Source: an uncultured Clostridia bacterium
GTDB taxonomy: Bacteria > Bacillota > Clostridia > Christensenellales > UBA1242
NCBI GenBank assembly: GCA_944359935.1
Contig: CALVTD010000001.1
Span: forward strand, 14,432-78,431
DNA length: 64,000 nucleotides
Direction: 5' to 3'
Shown: positions 3,860 to 59,580 of the stretch, one piece after another
Position numbering within the stretch: position 1 is the stretch's first letter
Layout of the letters: every line of letters starts with the position of its first letter
Position numbers and translations under genes: made by a program
The notes under the pieces: generated by a model
What the model was told of the DNA's origin: nothing
What the model saw: the letters and a program-made list of their open reading frames with translations, nothing else
Databases searched by the model: none

Positions 3860-4897
3860 ATGAAAAAGATTGTATTCACTGGTGGCGGAACTGCGGGACA
3901 CATATATCCCAACATCGCCCTTATAGAGGATTTAAAAAATTATGAGGTTCATTACATTGGCTCAAATGGCATGGAAAAACAAATTTTGAAAAATTTTCCA
4001 AAAGTTGTTTATCATGAAATTTCAACAGTTAAATTTGACAGGGTTCACCTTTTAAAAAATTTATCCATACCCTTTAAACTTTACAAAAGTGTGCGCGAGG
4101 CAAGAAAAATTTTGCGTGACATTAAGCCCAATGTGATTTTTTCAAAGGGCGGCTATGTTGCACTTCCAGTTGCCATAGCCTCAAAAAAACTTAACATAAA
4201 TCTGCTCACTCACGAAAGTGACTTGTCGCTTGGCCTTGCAAACAAAATCATTGCAAGATATGCAAAAATCGTTTGCACAACTTTTGAGCAAACAAGCGCC
4301 TCGCGCAAAAATTTTATTTGGACCGGCCAACCAATTCGCCATCAAATTTTTGAAGGCGACAAAAGCAAAGTTTTGGCAAAAATTGGCTACCAAACCAAAC
4401 CAATAATTTTGTTTGTTGGTGGAAGTTTAGGCTCAACAAAAATCAATTCACTTTTAAAGCAGCCCTCATATTTGACAGACAAATACACCATCATCCACGC
4501 CGTTGGAAAAAACAATATAGGCAGTTTTAAAGCATCTCAAAACTATTTTCCTTTTGCATATCTAGACCCGATTGCAGACTTCTACGCTGCCGCCGACCTT
4601 GTGGTTTCGCGCGCAGGCTCGGGTGTCATCAACGAACTTTTGGCGCTCAAAAAACCCATGCTTTTGCTGCCCCTTTCTAAAAATGCATCGCGCGGCGACC
4701 AAATTGAAAACGCCAAACTATTCAAAGAAAAAGGCTATGCAGAAGTGATTTATGATGAGCAATTATCACAAAAAACTTTGCAGCAATGTATAGAAAAAAT
4801 GTTTAAAAACATTGATTTTTATAAAAAAAATATGCAAAAAAGCATAAAAAACAATGCAAATTCGCAAATTTTACAGTTAATTGAAAAGTTTAGTTAA
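3860..4897 (+). CDS. murG: Undecaprenyl-PP-MurNAc-pentapeptide GlcNAc transferase MurG
   Basis: N-terminal KIVFTGGGTAGHIYPNIAL glycine-rich motif and C-terminal SRAGSGVINELLALKKPMLLLP...QIENA; start at MKKIVF preferred over the upstream ATG at 3839. Confidence 0.85.
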   Translation: MKKIVFTGGGTAGHIYPNIALIEDLKNYEVHYIGSNGMEKQILKNFPKVVYHEISTVKFDRVHLLKNLSIPFKLYKSVREARKILRDIKPNVIFSKGGYVALPVAIASKKLNINLLTHESDLSLGLANKIIARYAKIVCTTFEQTSASRKNFIWTGQPIRHQIFEGDKSKVLAKIGYQTKPIILFVGGSLGSTKINSLLKQPSYLTDKYTIIHAVGKNNIGSFKASQNYFPFAYLDPIADFYAAADLVVSRAGSGVINELLALKKPMLLLPLSKNASRGDQIENAKLFKEKGYAEVIYDEQLSQKTLQQCIEKMFKNIDFYKKNMQKSIKNNANSQILQLIEKFS

Positions 4898-7517: not shown

Positions 7518-8021
7518 TTAACCACAATTTAAAACAAAATCTTCACTGACTGGCTGAGTATTCGCCAAAATCTGGCCTGTGCCCTCGGCGTTATCCTCAA
7601 CCTCGCCAGCCACAACCCTGAAAAATAACTTGGCAGGCTGTTCAACGTTAAAAACATAAATCACATCCACCGCATCTTTAAGCCTACTAAAAGTTTCTCT
7701 GCCCTCTTGCCCCATGCTTGAATAGATGAGGCTTGTCAGCGAATTCCACCTATCTTTTTGCGAGATTGTTGCGCTCATCTGCCCGTCACCCTCTCTAAAA
7801 AAGGTGAAACTTAAATTTTCAACATCGCTCATAATTTGCATGTCATAATATTTCTCTTCAACCCTGTCATCCTGCTGAAAACTGATTTTTATTGAATAGT
7901 CGTCACTGCCAGCGCTGGTGGCGTTGGAAAGGTACGCAACCGTGATTTCATTTGAACTTTCACAACCTGCAAATATGCACGCGCACATGATGAGCAAAGC
8001 CAAAAACTTTAATTTTTTCAT
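7518..8021 (-). CDS. Lipoprotein, unknown function
   Basis: MKKLKFLALLIMCACIFAGC lipobox; GGAGGTG RBS before ATG at 8021. Confidence 0.6.
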   Translation of the reverse strand: MKKLKFLALLIMCACIFAGCESSNEITVAYLSNATSAGSDDYSIKISFQQDDRVEEKYYDMQIMSDVENLSFTFFREGDGQMSATISQKDRWNSLTSLIYSSMGQEGRETFSRLKDAVDVIYVFNVEQPAKLFFRVVAGEVEDNAEGTGQILANTQPVSEDFVLNCG

Positions 8022-10832: not shown

Positions 10833-11532
10833 AAAGATAGTGAAAAAATTTTGGCAGGCTTTCACCCTCGCCCGTTGTCATAAAAAAGCAGTCGTTCCCT
10901 CCACTTTGCGGGCAAAAGCAGTTTAAGCGCTTTGCAATGCCTTGGCTGCTGGCAAAAAGTTCAGCATCACAAAAACTTGAAATCTGCGCCTTAATAGCCT
11001 CAAAATGCGTGCAACCCAAAACAATCGCCTTAGGCGAAAGAGGCAAAATGTTTTGTTTTAGATATGGCGTTAAACAATCCAAATCAAACAAATTTTGGTC
11101 TATCAGCGTTGGCAAATTTTGGATGGCAAGCGTGCGCATGCGCGGATGTTTTTTTGCAAGCGCGCTGTATTTTATCGTTGCAGGAGTGGCAAGCAAAAGC
11201 ACCTCGCTCTCGTCATATTTTTCACATGCAGGCTTAATCGCTGGCTCGCAACCAACAAAAATAATGTGCGGATAAAGCGCCCGCATTCTTTTAATTGCTG
11301 CCGCCGTTAAAGTGTTGCATGCAAAAATTATGATGTCTGGCTTAAAAAAAGAATTTAACAGTTCCACCAAATTTTTTGCAATATTTATTAAATTTTGCTT
11401 ATTTTTTTGACCATACGGCGCATTTTTTTCGTCAGCGAGATATAAAAATTGGCAGTCGTGAACTGAACCGAGCAAATTTTTCAGCACATTCAATCCACCA
11501 CTGCCGCTATCAATCACCGCTACTTTTTTCAC
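10822..11532 (-). CDS. murI: Glutamate racemase MurI
   Basis: VIDSGSGGLNVL, FACNTLTAAAI and LGCTHFEAI catalytic Cys motifs. Confidence 0.85.
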   Translation of the reverse strand: MKKVAVIDSGSGGLNVLKNLLGSVHDCQFLYLADEKNAPYGQKNKQNLINIAKNLVELLNSFFKPDIIIFACNTLTAAAIKRMRALYPHIIFVGCEPAIKPACEKYDESEVLLLATPATIKYSALAKKHPRMRTLAIQNLPTLIDQNLFDLDCLTPYLKQNILPLSPKAIVLGCTHFEAIKAQISSFCDAELFASSQGIAKRLNCFCPQSGGNDCFFMTTGEGESLPKFFHYLFNC

Positions 11533-37087: not shown

Positions 37088-37354
37088 CCGGGCTAGATGG
37101 GGAGTTAGCGGTGCCCTGTAACCTGCAACCCGCTATAGCAGGATTGAACGCTTGCCTCGGCAATGCTAGGTCAAAAATGTGCAGGCTTATTTTGGCGATG
37201 AAATCAAGGTCTTATGCAACGGTTGCTCCTGAACCATGTCAGGCCCTGACGGGAGCATCATTAAGGGAATACAACTGTGTGCCATAAGGAAGCTTTGGTG
37301 GAGCGAAAATAGTTTGAGGCAGTTGGTTTAGCATTGACAAAGCATTCGCCCGGT
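37088..37354 (+). ncRNA. ffs: Signal recognition particle RNA, long Bacillus-type (scRNA, with Alu domain)
   Basis: GGGGAGTTAGCGGTGCCCTGTAACCTGCAACCCGCTATAGCAGG and TGAACCATGTCAGGCCCTGACGGGAGCATCATTAAG closely match the B. subtilis scRNA as remembered. 5-prime CCGGGC pairs with 3-prime GCCCGG. Confidence 0.9.
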
Positions 37355-51255: not shown

Positions 51256-52563
51256 CTAAAACCTCAGTCCCTTTTTATTTTTCATCATTTTCATCATCTC
51301 TTTGGACTGAGCAAACTGCCTAAGCAGCGCGTTTACTTGCTGAACGCTTGTGCCACTGCCTTTGGCAATTCTCTGGCGTCTAGACGCCTTGATGATGTCT
51401 GGGTTTTGCCGCTCCTCTGGCGTCATAGATTGAATGATGTATTTGTTTATTTGAATTTGCTGTTCGTCAATCTGCACGCCCTTTAATTTGTTGCCCATGC
51501 CTGGAATCATCGCCAGGATGTCTTGAATTGAACCCATTTTTTTCATGCTTTCAATTTGGGCAAGGTAGTCATCAAATGTGAACGAGTTTTCTCTAAACTT
51601 CTTTTCAAGCGCTTTTGCCTGTTCCTCGGTTACGGCCTCCTGTGCCTTTTCAATCAGTGAAAGCACATCGCCCATGCCCAAAATTCTGCTAGCAATGCGG
51701 TCTGGATAAAACGGTTCAATATCCCCAATTTTTTCACCCACGCCAGTGAATTTAATTGGCTTGCCAGTTATTGCTTTGATTGAAAGCGCCGCGCCTCCTC
51801 GAGTGTCGCCATCCAGTTTGGTTAAAATAAAACCAGTAACATCCAGCGCGTTATTAAACGCCTCTGCCACATTCACGGCATCTTGACCTGTCATGGCGTC
51901 AAGCACAAGCAAAATTTCTGTTGGCTGAACTTCTTTTTTGATGTTTTTAAGTTCATCCATAAGTTCTTCATTGATGTGCAATCTGCCCGCCGTATCCAAA
52001 ATAACAACATCATAGCCCTGCTTTTTTGCGTGTTCCACGGCCTGTTTAGCGGTTTTAACTGGGTTTTGAGTGCCTTTTTCAAACACCTCAACATTGGCTT
52101 GTTTTCCAACCACCTGCAACTGAGAAATTGCCGCAGGCCTGTAAATATCGCAGGCTACAAGCAGTGGTTTCTTGCCGCTTTTTTTAAGATGCGCGGCCAG
52201 TTTTGCACACATGGTGGTTTTGCCCGCACCCTGCAAACCGCAAAGCATAATTATGGTTGGCGGAGCGGAGGAAATAACCAGTTTTTGATTGTTGGAACTC
52301 ATAAGGCTTGTAAGTTCATCGCGCACGATTTTAATAACTTGTTGTGCAGGCGTTAAACTTTTAAGCACCTCGTCGCCCACTGCTTTTTCGGACACATTCT
52401 TAACAAAATCTTTGGCAACCATATAGTTGACGTCCGCTTCCAGCAAAGCAATTCGCACTTCACGCATTGCCTCTTTAATTTCAAGTTCTGTCAACCTGCC
52501 GCGCTTTGTGAGTTTTGAAAAAATGTGATTAAATTTTTCGGATAATGATGAAAAAAGTGCCAT
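51256..52563 (-). CDS. ffh: Signal recognition particle protein Ffh
   Basis: MLCGLQGAGKTT, DTAGRL, TKLDGDTRGGAALS, Met-rich C-terminal M domain. Confidence 0.95.
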   Translation of the reverse strand: MALFSSLSEKFNHIFSKLTKRGRLTELEIKEAMREVRIALLEADVNYMVAKDFVKNVSEKAVGDEVLKSLTPAQQVIKIVRDELTSLMSSNNQKLVISSAPPTIIMLCGLQGAGKTTMCAKLAAHLKKSGKKPLLVACDIYRPAAISQLQVVGKQANVEVFEKGTQNPVKTAKQAVEHAKKQGYDVVILDTAGRLHINEELMDELKNIKKEVQPTEILLVLDAMTGQDAVNVAEAFNNALDVTGFILTKLDGDTRGGAALSIKAITGKPIKFTGVGEKIGDIEPFYPDRIASRILGMGDVLSLIEKAQEAVTEEQAKALEKKFRENSFTFDDYLAQIESMKKMGSIQDILAMIPGMGNKLKGVQIDEQQIQINKYIIQSMTPEERQNPDIIKASRRQRIAKGSGTSVQQVNALLRQFAQSKEMMKMMKNKKGLRF

Positions 52564-57356: not shown

Positions 57357-57530
57357 ATGAGAAAGGATTATCCAAGATACACATTAAGAATATCCAAAGT
57401 TATGCTGTCAAAACTTGCAAGCATCGCCGAAAGAAATGGTCGCACAAAAAATAAAGAAATCGAGTTTTTGCTAAAAAGGCATATCGCCGAATATGAGCGC
57501 CTTAACGGAGAAATTAAAATAGAAAAATAA
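57357..57530 (+). CDS. Arc/MetJ-type ribbon-helix-helix DNA-binding protein (57 aa)
   Basis: Below the track cut-off. Hand translation gives MRKDYPRYTLRISKVMLSKLASIAERNGRTKNKEIEFLLKRHIAEYERLNGEIKIEK, a beta-strand then two helices in the RHH pattern. AAGGAGGG RBS. Confidence 0.6.
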   Translation: MRKDYPRYTLRISKVMLSKLASIAERNGRTKNKEIEFLLKRHIAEYERLNGEIKIEK

Positions 57531-57543
57531 CTCACCAAAATTA

Positions 57544-57572
57544 TTGACTTTTTTTTGAGTTTTTTATATACT
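57544..57572 (+). promoter_or_regulatory. Promoter of tRNA-Lys
   Basis: TTGACT (57544-57549), 17 nt, TATACT (57567-57572). Confidence 0.45.
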
Positions 57573-57635
57573 TGTGTGTGCAAGTGATGCGGCAAGAAAT
57601 TTGTTTTGCAAACGCACGCCAAAACAACTTAACAT

Positions 57636-57711
57636 GGACTTGTAGCTCAGTTGGTAGAGCAATTGACTCTTAATCAATGGGTCCAGGGTTCGAGCCCCTG
57701 CAAGTCCACCA
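57636..57711 (+). tRNA. tRNA-Lys (anticodon CTT), CCA encoded
   Basis: GGACTTG/CAAGTCC acceptor stem, GCTCAGTTGGTAGAGC D-arm, ATTGA-CTCTTAA-TCAAT anticodon arm, CAGGG-TTCGAGC-CCCTG T-arm, ACCA end. Confidence 0.93.
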
Positions 57712-57786
57712 AAAACCAGCCTTTCGCGGCTGGATTTTTTCTTGCAGTGGCTGCAAAGGTTAAAACCTTTGCGCATGCTCCGCATG
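57694..57786 (+). repeat. 93-nt direct repeat, copy 1 (last 18 nt of tRNA-Lys, terminator hairpin, and ~55 nt downstream)
   Basis: Near-identical to 57884-57976. The only differences are in the A-run and the hairpin loop and flank. Confidence 0.9.
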
Positions 57787-57883
57787 CCGAACCCTGCACT
57801 TCGTCCAGGTCGGAGCAAGCGTGGTTACAACCACACTCGCTCGGCCATTCGCTTGTTGCTCCCCAGAGCAACGCTCATAACGC

Positions 57884-57976
57884 GCCCCTGCAAGTCCACC
57901 AAAAAACCAGCCCTCGCGGCTGGCTTTTTTCTTGCAGTGGCTGCAAAGGTTAAAACCTTTGCGCATGCTCCGCATG
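57884..57976 (+). repeat. 93-nt direct repeat, copy 2
   Basis: GCCCCTGCAAGTCCACCAAAAAACCAGCCCTCGCGGCTGGCTTTTTTCTTGCAGTGGCTGCAAAGGTTAAAACCTTTGCGCATGCTCCGCATG. Confidence 0.9.
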
Positions 57977-58450
57977 TACGAACCCCGGACAAGTCCGGGT
58001 CGCAAACTTCCAGTTTGGGCCATTCGGCTATAGTTTGCCTGCCGGCAAACGCCTCATACTACGCTTCCCCCGACAGTCCACCATGCTAAATTCGTTATTT
58101 TAAAGAAATTTATTTATTTTTATATAACTATTTCTGCTAGTTTAGAATTTGAGTTTAAATTTGATTTTACATTTCACACCTCCTTTTAGATAATTTTACT
58201 ATTCCCGTGTGGACACCATTTGTCACGCGAGAAAAGTTTTCGCAAGAATTTTAGCATTCTCGCTGTATCACCATTTGCTACAGCGGGAAAAGTTGTTAAG
58301 AAAAAATATCTCTGCTTTTGCAAAGATATTAGTCTCTCTACTTATATAACAAATACTTTTTAATTTCGTGGGGTCATTTTGGGCGATTTTCACGAAAATA
58401 ATTGAAAAAGCTTTGTTTATGTGATATATTTATTTAAAAGGAGTAAGATA

Positions 58451-59194
58451 ATGGTTGGATATTATTGTAGTGGTTTTGATGTTGAAAATGCTTTCGGTCA
58501 CGGACTTGGAGAGATGTTTAAAACAGAACTAAAAAACACAAGAAATATTGTGTATATTCCGGGTAGTCCAGATAAAATGGAAAAGGCAAGAACGAAATAT
58601 GTCCCTGCTTTTGTTGAGCATTTTAAAAAAGCTGGAATAGTATTTGATAATGTAAATATTATTTCGCCCGTATTGAGTAGTGATAAAGCAAAAGAAATGA
58701 TTAGAAAAGCAGATTTTGTTATGCTAATGGGTGGTGATCCTTTTAAACAAAAGGCGATGTGCGAAAAACTTGGCATTATGGACGAGCTAAAAAAATTTAA
58801 TGGTCTTATACTTGGTTTTAGTGCTGGCGCTATGCTTATGTCTAAATATATCATTATCACCCCTTGCAGTGAAGAATATCCTAATTTTAAAATTGAAGAA
58901 GGCTTAAATCTTGACGGAATATCAATCTATCCACATAATAATACAGCGGAAGAAAAGTATCCAGATGTTTTAGTCGCTGGTGATGAAACATATCGCAAAG
59001 AAGATTTGCTAAAAGTAGCAAAAAAATATGGAAAATTTTACTTGTTGCAAGATTACGATAACAAAGATATTAGCATAATAAAATTTACAGACGGAAAAAT
59101 GGAATTTTATACAGAAAACAATGGAAAGATTTGGGAAGCGGATAATGACGTTAACCTAATCGTAAACGAAAAACAAGAAGAAAGAATTAAATAG
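58451..59194 (+). CDS. Peptidase S51 (dipeptidase E / cyanophycinase-like) family protein
   Basis: VMLMGGDPFKQ, LILGFSAGAMLMS (nucleophile Ser), ISIYPHNN (His); AAAGGAG RBS before MVGYY. Confidence 0.68.
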   Translation: MVGYYCSGFDVENAFGHGLGEMFKTELKNTRNIVYIPGSPDKMEKARTKYVPAFVEHFKKAGIVFDNVNIISPVLSSDKAKEMIRKADFVMLMGGDPFKQKAMCEKLGIMDELKKFNGLILGFSAGAMLMSKYIIITPCSEEYPNFKIEEGLNLDGISIYPHNNTAEEKYPDVLVAGDETYRKEDLLKVAKKYGKFYLLQDYDNKDISIIKFTDGKMEFYTENNGKIWEADNDVNLIVNEKQEERIK

Positions 59195-59316
59195 TTCCTC
59201 TACTTATATAACCAACGCTTTCCCAAAATCGTAAGGGTATTTTTGCCCATTTTTACAAAAAAAAGTTTAAAAATTTTTACACAACAAAAAAGAAGCAAGC
59301 AAAAACAAAAAGCATT

Positions 59317-59523
59317 GTGAAGGCCCGCTGCAACTATCCTAGCACATTTTCAATGACGAGTACCATAAAGATTGAATTCTTAGATGAGCCAAACATACGA
59401 ACATCAGGAACATTTAGGGCTGCAAACGCATTTGGTGTTTACGAGAACCGAAGCTTTATTATAAATTTTAAGTATAATTCTTCTTCCGAGTCTTTTACAT
59501 TAGTGAAGTGCACTATTATTTAA
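59317..59523 (+). CDS. Doubtful hypothetical ORF (68 aa)
   Basis: GTG start, no RBS, no motif. It is listed only because it fills the space before the terminator copy. Confidence 0.15.
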   Translation: MKARCNYPSTFSMTSTIKIEFLDEPNIRTSGTFRAANAFGVYENRSFIINFKYNSSSESFTLVKCTII

Positions 59524-59545
59524 AATTTTTTATCTTAACTGACAT

Positions 59546-59580
59546 CACCAAAAAACCAGCCCTCGCGGCTGGCTTTTTTT
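59546..59580 (+). repeat. Third copy of the CACCA-plus-terminator segment (34 nt identical to 57897-57930); also acts as a bidirectional terminator
   Basis: CACCAAAAAACCAGCCCTCGCGGCTGGCTTTTTT; sequence diverges immediately on both sides. Confidence 0.85.

Follow-up and report, generated by a model that had tools for sequence, protein, structure and literature searches.

By definition, a tRNA-linked repeat (TLR) belongs to a tRNA or rRNA operon, where it shares the strand of the gene and lies immediately downstream of it (PMC8144298, after Egan & Landy 1978 and Rudd 1999), and the last 18–19 bp of each repeat are identical to the 3′ end of that gene (PMC8144298). In E. coli, ten loci together hold 22 TLRs, with between one and five at each; these repeats have been known since 1978 and still "have no known function" (PMC8144298). 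Some are transcribed: the TLR of rrnB, which sits between terminators T1 and T2, is reached by read-through of T1 and then processed (PMC8144298), and RtT RNAs have been detected on Northern blots (PMC4986893). 3′ETS-leuZ and other small RNAs of tRNA operons are also non-tRNA RNAs released by processing from a tRNA primary transcript (PMC8144298). Here, we analyze two tandem units, A and B, that directly follow a tRNA-Lys(CTT) gene in a stretch of 64,000 nt from an uncultured Clostridia bacterium (GCA_944359935.1, contig CALVTD010000001.1, positions 14,432–78,431, + strand), which we refer to as the window. We think it somewhat probable that both units are TLRs of the RtT type and represent a new sequence family at the tRNA-Lys(CTT) gene of uncultured gut Clostridia.

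In the window and in all relatives, the units lie immediately downstream of the tRNA on its strand; in the window they occur as two tandem copies. Unit A ends in GCCCCTGCAAGTCCACCA, which agrees with the tRNA end at 18/18 positions (20/21 when the T-loop bases are added), as the initial annotation of this DNA had stated. ARAGORN, Rfam, and repeat analysis likewise bear out its description of a tRNA-Lys followed by two tandem ~185-nt units that both open with the same terminator-like hairpin and T-run (57716–57733 and 57907–57923); this tRNA is the only one in the 64 kb according to ARAGORN and Rfam. The direct repeat that had been given as 93 nt (57694–57786 and 57884–57976) is real and measures 96 nt (57691–57786 and 57881–57976; 92% identical, ungapped, spacing 190). 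Each unit consists of the terminator hairpin and a ~155-nt GC-rich, multi-hairpin core that ends in a copy of the tRNA 3′ end, so that the sequence of this end is found at 57695–57711, 57885–57901, and 58067–58083. The GC fraction is 0.53–0.575 across the units versus 0.28–0.37 in the flanks, in keeping with the annotated contrast, and a 26-nt core motif occurs twice in the window versus 0.00 expected occurrences. Minimum free energy (MFE) folding of unit A gives a closed multi-hairpin structure of −81.5 kcal/mol (z −6.3), that of unit B a similar structure (z −3.6), and no shuffled sequence folded as well as either; the hairpins previously placed at equivalent positions were recovered in both units.

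The closest described relatives in design are the E. coli tyrT repeats, or RtT (rttR; RF00391), which are also tandem ~180-nt units directly 3′ of a tRNA on the same strand. In the tyrT-tyrV locus (L051; L001–L051 are our labels for comparison contigs and loci), which served as a positive control, Rfam identified four RtT units at 133–138 bits, and the 178-nt tandem units all terminate with the final 19 nt of tRNA-Tyr. The Rfam consensus for RtT has an inverted copy of the tRNA strand, GGGGAAGGAU, that closes on AUCCUUCCCC and leaves CACCACCA free, and the unit starts with a nearly complete inverted T-arm followed by the direct AAGGTTCGA. The Clostridial units are built in the same way: they begin with an inverted T-arm/acceptor half, which pairs with the 3′ copy so that the CCA tail stays free, and they contain an internal hairpin of inverted and direct T-arm halves. 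They differ in that no sequence or model similarity to RtT is detectable, the tRNA is Lys-CTT rather than Tyr, and the hosts are Firmicutes rather than Gammaproteobacteria; moreover, each Clostridial unit has an intrinsic terminator of its own, two additional hairpins interrupt the inverted T-arm, and no Tpr-like open reading frame (ORF) is present.

Local alignments define the unit as an inverted and a direct copy of the tRNA 3′ half. The 5′ strand of the closing helix P1, CTTGCAGTGGCT against CTTGCAGGGGCT, is the reverse complement of the tRNA T-stem-3′/acceptor strand (11/12), and the 5′ strand of hairpin H3, CGAACCCTGCAC, is that of GTCCAGGGTTCG in the tRNA (11/12), which substantiates the inverted T-arm fragments of the initial annotation. 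On its 3′ strand, H3 repeats the same T-stem-5′/T-loop segment in direct orientation minus two bases, which leaves two fixed bulges, and the last 21 nt of unit A are a direct copy of the tRNA from the T-loop CGAGC onward (20/21). Both copies are broken at the same T-loop position, TTCG^AGC, the inverted one by hairpins H1 and H2 and the direct one by H4, GGCC, and H5; in L044/45, the most divergent relative, the inverted T-arm copy runs without interruption. The inverted and direct copies pair with each other on one strand twice, P1 closing the unit and H3 forming an "inside-out T-arm." The inverted tRNA 3′ half at the unit start and its closing pairing with the 3′ copy had been missed in the initial annotation. 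P1 spans 7–13 bp and leaves a free 7–8-nt tail, (G)UCCACCA, in 11 of the 12 unit types, so that the RtT trait of a 5′ inverted copy paired with the 3′ tRNA-end copy beside an unpaired CCA tail is present here as well, with P1 broken in unit B. The order of the core is P1 5′ strand, H1, H2, CGAA, H3, H4, GGCC, H5, AACG(A/C)G, P1 3′ strand, and (G)UCCACCA. The outer stem of H5 reads AUUCGGC/GCCUCAU across the core consensus; in unit A, GUUGCUC/GAGCAAC forms the inner stem below a C-rich apical loop. On the tRNA strand, H5 has a pyrimidine- or C-rich apical loop in essentially all units, as does H2 in group 1 (TCCC, TGCC, TCTC, CCCA, CTCC), and the opposite strand would read as GGA/GGGA-type loops.

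The same architecture is spread over distant relatives. When one genome per species was scanned with a degenerate motif, this layout came up in nine metagenome-assembled genomes of uncultured Clostridia, Eubacteriales, and Firmicutes (L011, L013–L017, L019, L021, and L023), in all nine directly after a tRNA-Lys(CTT) and on its strand. A metagenome scan added two contigs (L025 and L027), and homologues of a ribbon-helix-helix gene upstream of the tRNA led to four further lineages (L028–33 with L050; L034–39; L040–42; L044/45). In all, at least 12 lineages of uncultured Clostridia/Firmicutes share the tRNA-Lys(CTT)-linked unit architecture. Other matches of the motif scan (L012, L018, L020, L022, L024, and L026, from Proteobacteria, Gemmatimonadetes, and a high-GC contig) fall in unrelated sequence without a tRNA and are attributed to chance; among the distant ribbon-helix-helix homologues, L043 and L046–L049 have no adjacent tRNA-Lys or the contig ends there. 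A covariance model built from seven units (R1) finds every unit outside its seven, including those of the divergent group 2, at E values of 1e-7 to 1e-19; over all family lineages, E values range from 1e-7 to 1e-51, with hits on the + (tRNA) strand only, and in the 64-kb window R1 recognizes units A and B and nothing else. Nearly all of the sampled strains and species have one unit or more, always at one chromosomal site whose synteny is conserved across deep divergence, and the only other tRNA in these loci, the tRNA-Leu of L019, has no such repeat. The RsmD proteins of unit-bearing lineages are 51–74% identical. The unpaired motifs GGCC, the UC/UC loop, and AACG(A/C)G persist across these lineages, in which the neutral intergenic DNA around the units cannot be aligned. 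The ATTATTGACTTT box of the promoter-like site upstream of the tRNA is kept in relatives. The ribbon-helix-helix gene itself (57357–57530, + strand, ~100 nt upstream of the tRNA) encodes a 57-aa protein that matches Pfam TraY at 28.8 bits and Arc at 22 bits, and gene and tRNA-Lys are conserved together in at least six lineages at 64–93% identity.

Relatives' units end in the 3′ end of their own tRNA type, and the P1 strands follow with them. As the acceptor type of the adjacent tRNA varies (GGACTTG, GGACTGC, GGACCAG, and GGATCGC; the 3′ end in L027 is ...GGCAACCC), P1 and the 3′ copy change in step, with the P1 strand pairs CTTGCAG/CTGCAAG, CAGCAGGGAC/GTCCCTGCTG, UUGCCGG/CCGGCAG, UUGCCAGGG/CCCUGGCGA, and AUCGCCAAGGGC/GCCCCUGGCGAU, and the strands are complementary in 11/12 unit types. 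H1, H2, H4, and H5b likewise differ in sequence by lineage and keep their pairing, as compiled in hand-built helix tables; these tables and the covariance-model alignment were used because MAFFT alignments of all unit types misaligned H4/H5. In the R1-based alignment of 31 distinct sequences, which are related to one another and were fitted to the model that is being counted, 91.4% of cells form a standard pair, compared with 77.3% after shuffling and 28–40% when partners are slid, and 37 of 49 pairs have changed on both sides, compared with 17.8 ± 2.2 after shuffling and 9–19 when partners are slid. RNAalifold independently recovers H1–H4, and the units of 13 lineages have folding z-scores of −1.5 to −7.8. 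A pseudoknot between CGAA and UUCG (the H2–H3 junction with GGCCAUUCG) was dropped, as its pairing is not kept in the GCAA-type L017, L019, and L023. What these data establish is that the fold of a single strand is conserved, a fold that might be used as RNA or as DNA.

Copy number varies among close relatives. Sister strains were reached via the neighboring RsmD protein and read on the tRNA strand, and their tRNA-Lys loci contain no copy of unit A (L006), one (L004 and L005), two (L001), or at least two (L002, L007, and L008); the window has two units and the largest array, in L015, up to three. In the sister strains, the boundaries of these differences fall in a ~50-nt repeat of tRNA 3′ end, terminator, and CTTG, and copy number changes by recombination between these ~50-nt repeats of tRNA 3′ end and terminator. 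Unit B records a different kind of event. Its first 93 nt are those of unit A, including the P1 5′ strand, and its 5′ part differs from unit A only in the last base of H2 (T in B, C in A) and in an extra A before H3. From H3 onward, unit B resembles the units of other species (L013, L034, and L035): its H3 matches the foreign CCGGGG-type T-arm at 12/12 positions, and its 3′ end matches the GGACTGC-type tRNA-Lys end of related species at 16/17 positions and the resident tRNA at only 14/17. The A-type P1 5′ strand is unable to pair with unit B's own 3′ end. Judged by its sequence, unit B is a chimera whose 3′ half and end derive from a different tRNA-Lys allele, and its terminus, which the initial annotation had taken for a decayed copy of the resident tRNA end, is not decayed. 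Other mixtures are seen in L016, where the 5′ fragment of one tRNA-Lys allele is followed by a second, complete allele with the units that match it and then by a terminator and P1 start of the window's type, and in L038, which terminates in a partial L013-type unit. Together with unit B, these mixtures show that a module of tRNA-Lys, terminator, and unit is exchanged between lineages, the units traveling and recombining with tRNA-Lys alleles. The features of the locus are collected in Table 1.

Table 1. Positions of the tRNA-Lys(CTT) gene, units A and B, and adjoining features in the window.
Feature	Position	Strand	Remarks
Promoter-like site upstream of tRNA-Lys	57544–57572	+	TTGACT-17-TATACT; sigma-70-like match
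tRNA-Lys(CTT)	57636–57711	+	Acceptor type GGACTTG/CAAGTCC; ARAGORN; Rfam tRNA 74 bits
Unit A	57712–57901	+	Starts at the base right after the tRNA-Lys CCA
Terminator hairpin 1	57712–57740	+	CCAGCC-TTTCGC-GGCTGG + T6; terminator of the tRNA itself, opening unit A
Unit A, P1 5′ strand	57741–57751	+	CTTGCAGTGGC; inverted copy of tRNA T-stem-3′/acceptor-3′ strand
Unit A, H1	57753–57772	+	GCAAAGG-TTAAAA-CCTTTGC
Unit A, H2	57773–57787	+	GCATGC-TCC-GCATGC
Unit A, H3	57788–57812	+	Inside-out T-arm; inverted copy CGAACCCTGCAC pairs with direct copy GTCCAGG-TCG
Unit A, H4	57813–57842	+	12-bp stem; sequence and length differ among lineages
Unit A, unpaired GGCC	57843–57846	+	Conserved
Unit A, H5	57847–57878	+	Outer stem AUUCG..CUCAU with conserved UC/UC internal loop
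Unit A, 3′ end	57879–57901	+	Junction AACGC, P1 3′ strand GCCCCTGCAAG, free tail TCCACCA
Unit B	57902–58083	+	In tandem with unit A
Terminator hairpin 2	57902–57930	+	Closes the transcript context of unit A, opens unit B
Unit B, 5′ part	57931–57978	+	P1 5′ strand, H1, H2
Unit B, 3′ part	57979–58066	+	H3 57979–58002, H4 58003–58017, GGCC 58018–58021, H5 58022–58057, junction
Unit B, 3′ end	58067–58083	+	CCCCCGACAGTCCACCA
Strain-specific 1.46-kb island	58084–59540		Inserted exactly after the CCACCA of unit B
Third tail-remnant copy and same terminator hairpin	59541–59580	+	Stem 59556–59572; original right flank of the array

The tRNA-Lys(CTT) locus is also a genuine hotspot of integration. The island behind unit B carries an ORF of the Peptidase_S51 family (58421/58451–59194) and is flanked by the imperfect direct repeats GACAGTCCACCA (58072–58083) and GACATCACCA (59541–59550); sister strains lack it, and there a flank of the 59541–59580 type directly follows the last unit. 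Inserts of ~50 nt flanked by TCCACCA stand between a unit's CCACCA and the next terminator in L015 (4486–4541) and L023 (reverse complement, 4599–4650) and look like genuine mini-scars of past integration at unit 3′ ends. Island and inserts together show that the 3′ ends of the units serve as attachment sites, each unit adding one more copy of the tRNA 3′ end that integrating islands use. In L003, an element encoding a tyrosine integrase and a MobL relaxase adjoins the tRNA; its arm repeats AAAGTGTCTAAAAA are also found in L032, L033, and L041, and in L032 and L033 they directly abut the 3′ end of a unit. On reading, the unit bodies bear no resemblance to these arm repeats of the co-resident element. 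The integrase-MobL element itself appears to integrate in the tRNA-Lys anticodon loop (junction ...CTCTTAATCA/TACGCTCC; L003 reverse complement ~10950–11230, L041:2300–2450) and to bring a complete tRNA-Lys of another acceptor type, GGACCAG or GGGCTGT, that replaces the split gene; L005 keeps a foreign tRNA-Lys without the element, and L027:1985–2030 shows the matching right junction.

Two further arrangements of tRNA-Lys fragments occur at these loci. A 141-nt insertion lies ~140 nt upstream of the tRNA-Lys in L002, L003, L006, and L007 (reverse strand) and also at L025:1–143. Its parts are, in order, the initial 53 nt of the tRNA, up to GTCCAGGG; a GC-rich segment that contains the hairpin CCCTAAAAATT..AATTTTTAGGG; a T-arm half in inverted orientation, CCCGAACCCTGGAC, able to pair with GTCCAGGG; and a duplicate of the 25 nt upstream of the tRNA. 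The insertion is a 5′-side counterpart of the downstream units. Partial tRNA-Lys copies with a ~45-nt GC-rich insert in the anticodon loop (GCAGCGCCAAGGCG..CCTGCGTATGGAGCG.AAGCGAAAT) are present at L013:3913–4010, L014 (reverse complement, ~700–800), and L017 (reverse complement, 7580–7650); the insert common to these three species has no Rfam match.

If the units are TLRs of the RtT type, they may be expressed as RNA in the way described for E. coli. By analogy, a fraction of the transcripts from the tRNA-Lys promoter would read through the terminator, and the tRNA-maturation enzymes would release each unit as a discrete ~150–190-nt RNA, because the unit shares the 3′ end and trailer of the tRNA and because P1 with its CCA tail is minihelix-like. 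The promoter-like site upstream of the tRNA is the only good sigma-70-like match able to drive + strand transcription into the units. Were such RNAs made, the C-rich apical loops suggest, as a lead, pairing with or sequestering a partner.

Several observations weigh against this reading. We found no promoter-like site inside the units, and a canonical terminator stands ahead of every unit in every lineage, so that any + strand unit RNA depends on read-through. In H1, H2, H4, and H5b, only three one-sided (wobble) changes are seen versus 110 double changes; the hand-curated helix tables contain 18 G-U pairs, 12 of them at the outer end of P1, only slightly more than the 10 A-C mismatches; and both strands fold with similar z-scores. 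The scarcity of G-U pairs, the equal folding of both strands, and the layout of promoter and terminator are unlike those of typical selected RNAs, and the same three points would also fit a DNA-level structure or hairpins kept by template switching. To these must be added the dependence of the pair counts on an alignment of related sequences fitted to R1, as stated above, and the absence of any unit from L006, which marks the element as dispensable. The RF00391 model, moreover, has no match in 57500–58300 at E ≤ 10 (gathering threshold 45 bits). All defining TLR features that could be tested are present, and we accordingly class the units with the TLR/RtT kind, as a new sequence family outside RF00391. 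Rfam as a whole offers no family for them: in the entire window at gathering thresholds and in the unit region at E ≤ 10, the only matches are the tRNA and the signal recognition particle (SRP) RNA. The latter is the bacterial large form (37088–37353, + strand, 152.7 bits) and, like ffh (SRP54; 51256–52563, − strand), an ordinary housekeeping gene. The initial annotation had offered a selected, structured, tRNA-linked RNA family as one explanation; the covarying single-strand fold and the TLR design have held up, and the functional RNA product stays putative, given the missing internal promoter, the few G-U pairs, and the equally good folding of both strands.

The principal competing explanation places the function in DNA. 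In integron attC and CTX-phi attP sites, inverted recombinase half-sites fold on one strand into a mimic of the duplex site with bulges, and integration at such folded sites produces tandem arrays. The likeness to the units, where the targeted sequence is a tRNA T-arm, is a lead only; no integron- or Xer-type context and no linked recombinase were found at the loci. On this model, a unit would be a single-stranded or cruciform mimic of the tRNA attachment site, a miniature nonautonomous module akin to a cis-mobilizable element (CIME), amplified and moved by tRNA-Lys-targeting integrases, in which P1 would mimic the right half of the T-arm site, H3 the left half, and the hairpin arms would stand at the T-loop crossover. 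It would account for the H3 5′ strand, the exact reverse complement of GTCC(A/G)GGGTTCG, tracking the local tRNA T-stem type in 11/12 lineages; for the interruption of both T-arm copies at TTCG^AGC; for stems that are almost purely Watson-Crick and fold equally well on either strand; and for the setting, an integration hotspot with the integrase-MobL element in four loci, an island right after the CCACCA of unit B, and units or partial units of foreign lineages side by side (unit B, L016, and L038). No recombinase is consistently linked to the units, however, and the group 2 loci have no integrase within 8 kb; the units resemble neither the arm repeats of the resident element nor any phage, plasmid, or viral contig; they occupy a single chromosomal locus of conserved synteny across deep divergence; the same architecture in E. 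coli TLRs yields RNAs (PMC4986893, PMC8144298); and the pyrimidine-rich loops on the tRNA strand are an asymmetry that a duplex site does not need. We consider this explanation unlikely but a serious rival, the strongest of the alternatives to a TLR of the RtT type. A functionless by-product seems quite unlikely to us: fold-back and tandem duplication of the tRNA 3′ half at a recombination hotspot, where gene conversion with the tRNA, together with horizontal exchange, would keep the units alike and the hairpins would be kept perfect by template switching during replication, which can create and maintain such hairpins (PMC8794818). Copy numbers of 0–3, truncated and chimeric units, the lack of wobble intermediates, and mismatches in the P1 5′ strand that include AT-directed transitions (C to T, G to A) would all be expected of such a by-product, and the E. 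coli TLRs have no assigned function either (PMC8144298). It does not readily explain why GC-rich motifs without a donor (GGCCAUUCGGC, CUCAUAACGAGC, and H3 with its two fixed bulges) persist where RsmD is only 51–74% identical and promoter-flanking DNA is unalignable, why nearly all strains and species sampled retain at least one unit, or why P1 stays complementary through different acceptor types.

The other explanation put forward in the initial annotation, nested attachment (att) scars of serial integrations with the oldest and most decayed copy most distal, we regard as very unlikely and have largely rejected. Each unit would be the remnant of an element between attL and attR at tRNA-Lys, and the units are indeed bounded by direct repeats of the tRNA 3′ end, a feature that TLRs share and that does not discriminate. 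The streptococcal tRNA-Lys(CTT) 3′ end is a hotspot for integrative and conjugative elements, integrative and mobilizable elements, and CIMEs, making this tRNA end a classic target (PMC5704250), and the ~50-nt inserts of L015 and L023 are real small scars in relatives. The units resemble streptococcal CIMEs and att accretion in the tRNA used, in segments bounded by direct repeats of its 3′ end, in tandem accretion, and in strain-variable content; CIMEs are decayed, span several kb, and hold remnants of element genes or arm sites, whereas the units are 185 nt, gene-free, structured, and conserved across species. Against scars stand the conservation and structure of the unit body in at least 12 lineages, the host terminator and the inverted tRNA copy within the repeat, features that simple integration does not make, and the distal end, a near-exact foreign allele. 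No unit match was found in viral contigs (three pattern scans) or in phages and plasmids (blastn), so that the units are not the attP flank of any catalogued element; absence from relatives combined with such a flank had been named as the outcome that would mark them as plain scars.

Other known elements fit less well than RtT. In E. coli, the TLRs at the ends of rRNA operons (rrA, rrB, and rrF) resemble the Clostridial units in that the 3′ end of the upstream gene is repeated ~150 bp downstream, between two terminators; unlike them, rrA, rrB, and rrF follow 5S rRNA and bind Hfq and CsrA, and the loops of the Clostridial units are C-rich on the tRNA strand rather than GGA-bearing. 3′ETS-leuZ, a short and unstructured trailer, neither carries a copy of the tRNA 3′ end nor is tandemly repeated. 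Several candidates were set aside. A tRNA, transfer-messenger RNA (tmRNA), or tRNA-like gene is not indicated, since ARAGORN and Rfam call only the true tRNA and the permuted-tmRNA model reaches 11.9 bits against a threshold of 47; a permuted tRNA, retron, type III antitoxin array, or group II intron fragment gave no model match, and no reverse transcriptase or toxin gene was called in the sister-strain and relative loci; and for a miniature inverted-repeat transposable element with terminal inverted repeats, the ~50-nt duplicated segment, terminator included, is too long for a transposase target duplication.

Placing units A and B among TLRs of the RtT type does not amount to a new principle; to our knowledge, they are the first comparative handle on TLR-type elements outside the Rfam RtT family. 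They would constitute a second family of TLR architecture, unrelated in sequence, in a distant phylum, at another tRNA, represented in many lineages, and with natural variation in copy number. We speculate, tentatively and with some doubt, that the TLR/RtT type is not peculiar to enterobacteria but a general, independently recurring device, in which a fold-back copy of the T-arm/acceptor half of a tRNA yields a CCA-tailed RNA, closed by a minihelix, that hijacks tRNA processing, while also multiplying the attachment site of integrative elements, and that the Clostridial family is a selected functional RNA exchanged together with tRNA-Lys alleles. If so, the family might act as a C-rich-loop regulator or as a decoy for factors of the tRNA-Lys acceptor end. 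What was an oddity of a single organism becomes open to comparative study of which among the inverted tRNA half, the closing helix, the CCA tail, and the inside-out T-arm is always kept, and such a study lets one ask whether the kept features serve RNA or recombination at tRNA genes. More generally, apparent att-site debris at a tRNA hotspot can be a conserved structured element, which matters for the annotation of genomic islands and for the discovery of noncoding RNAs in uncultured gut bacteria.

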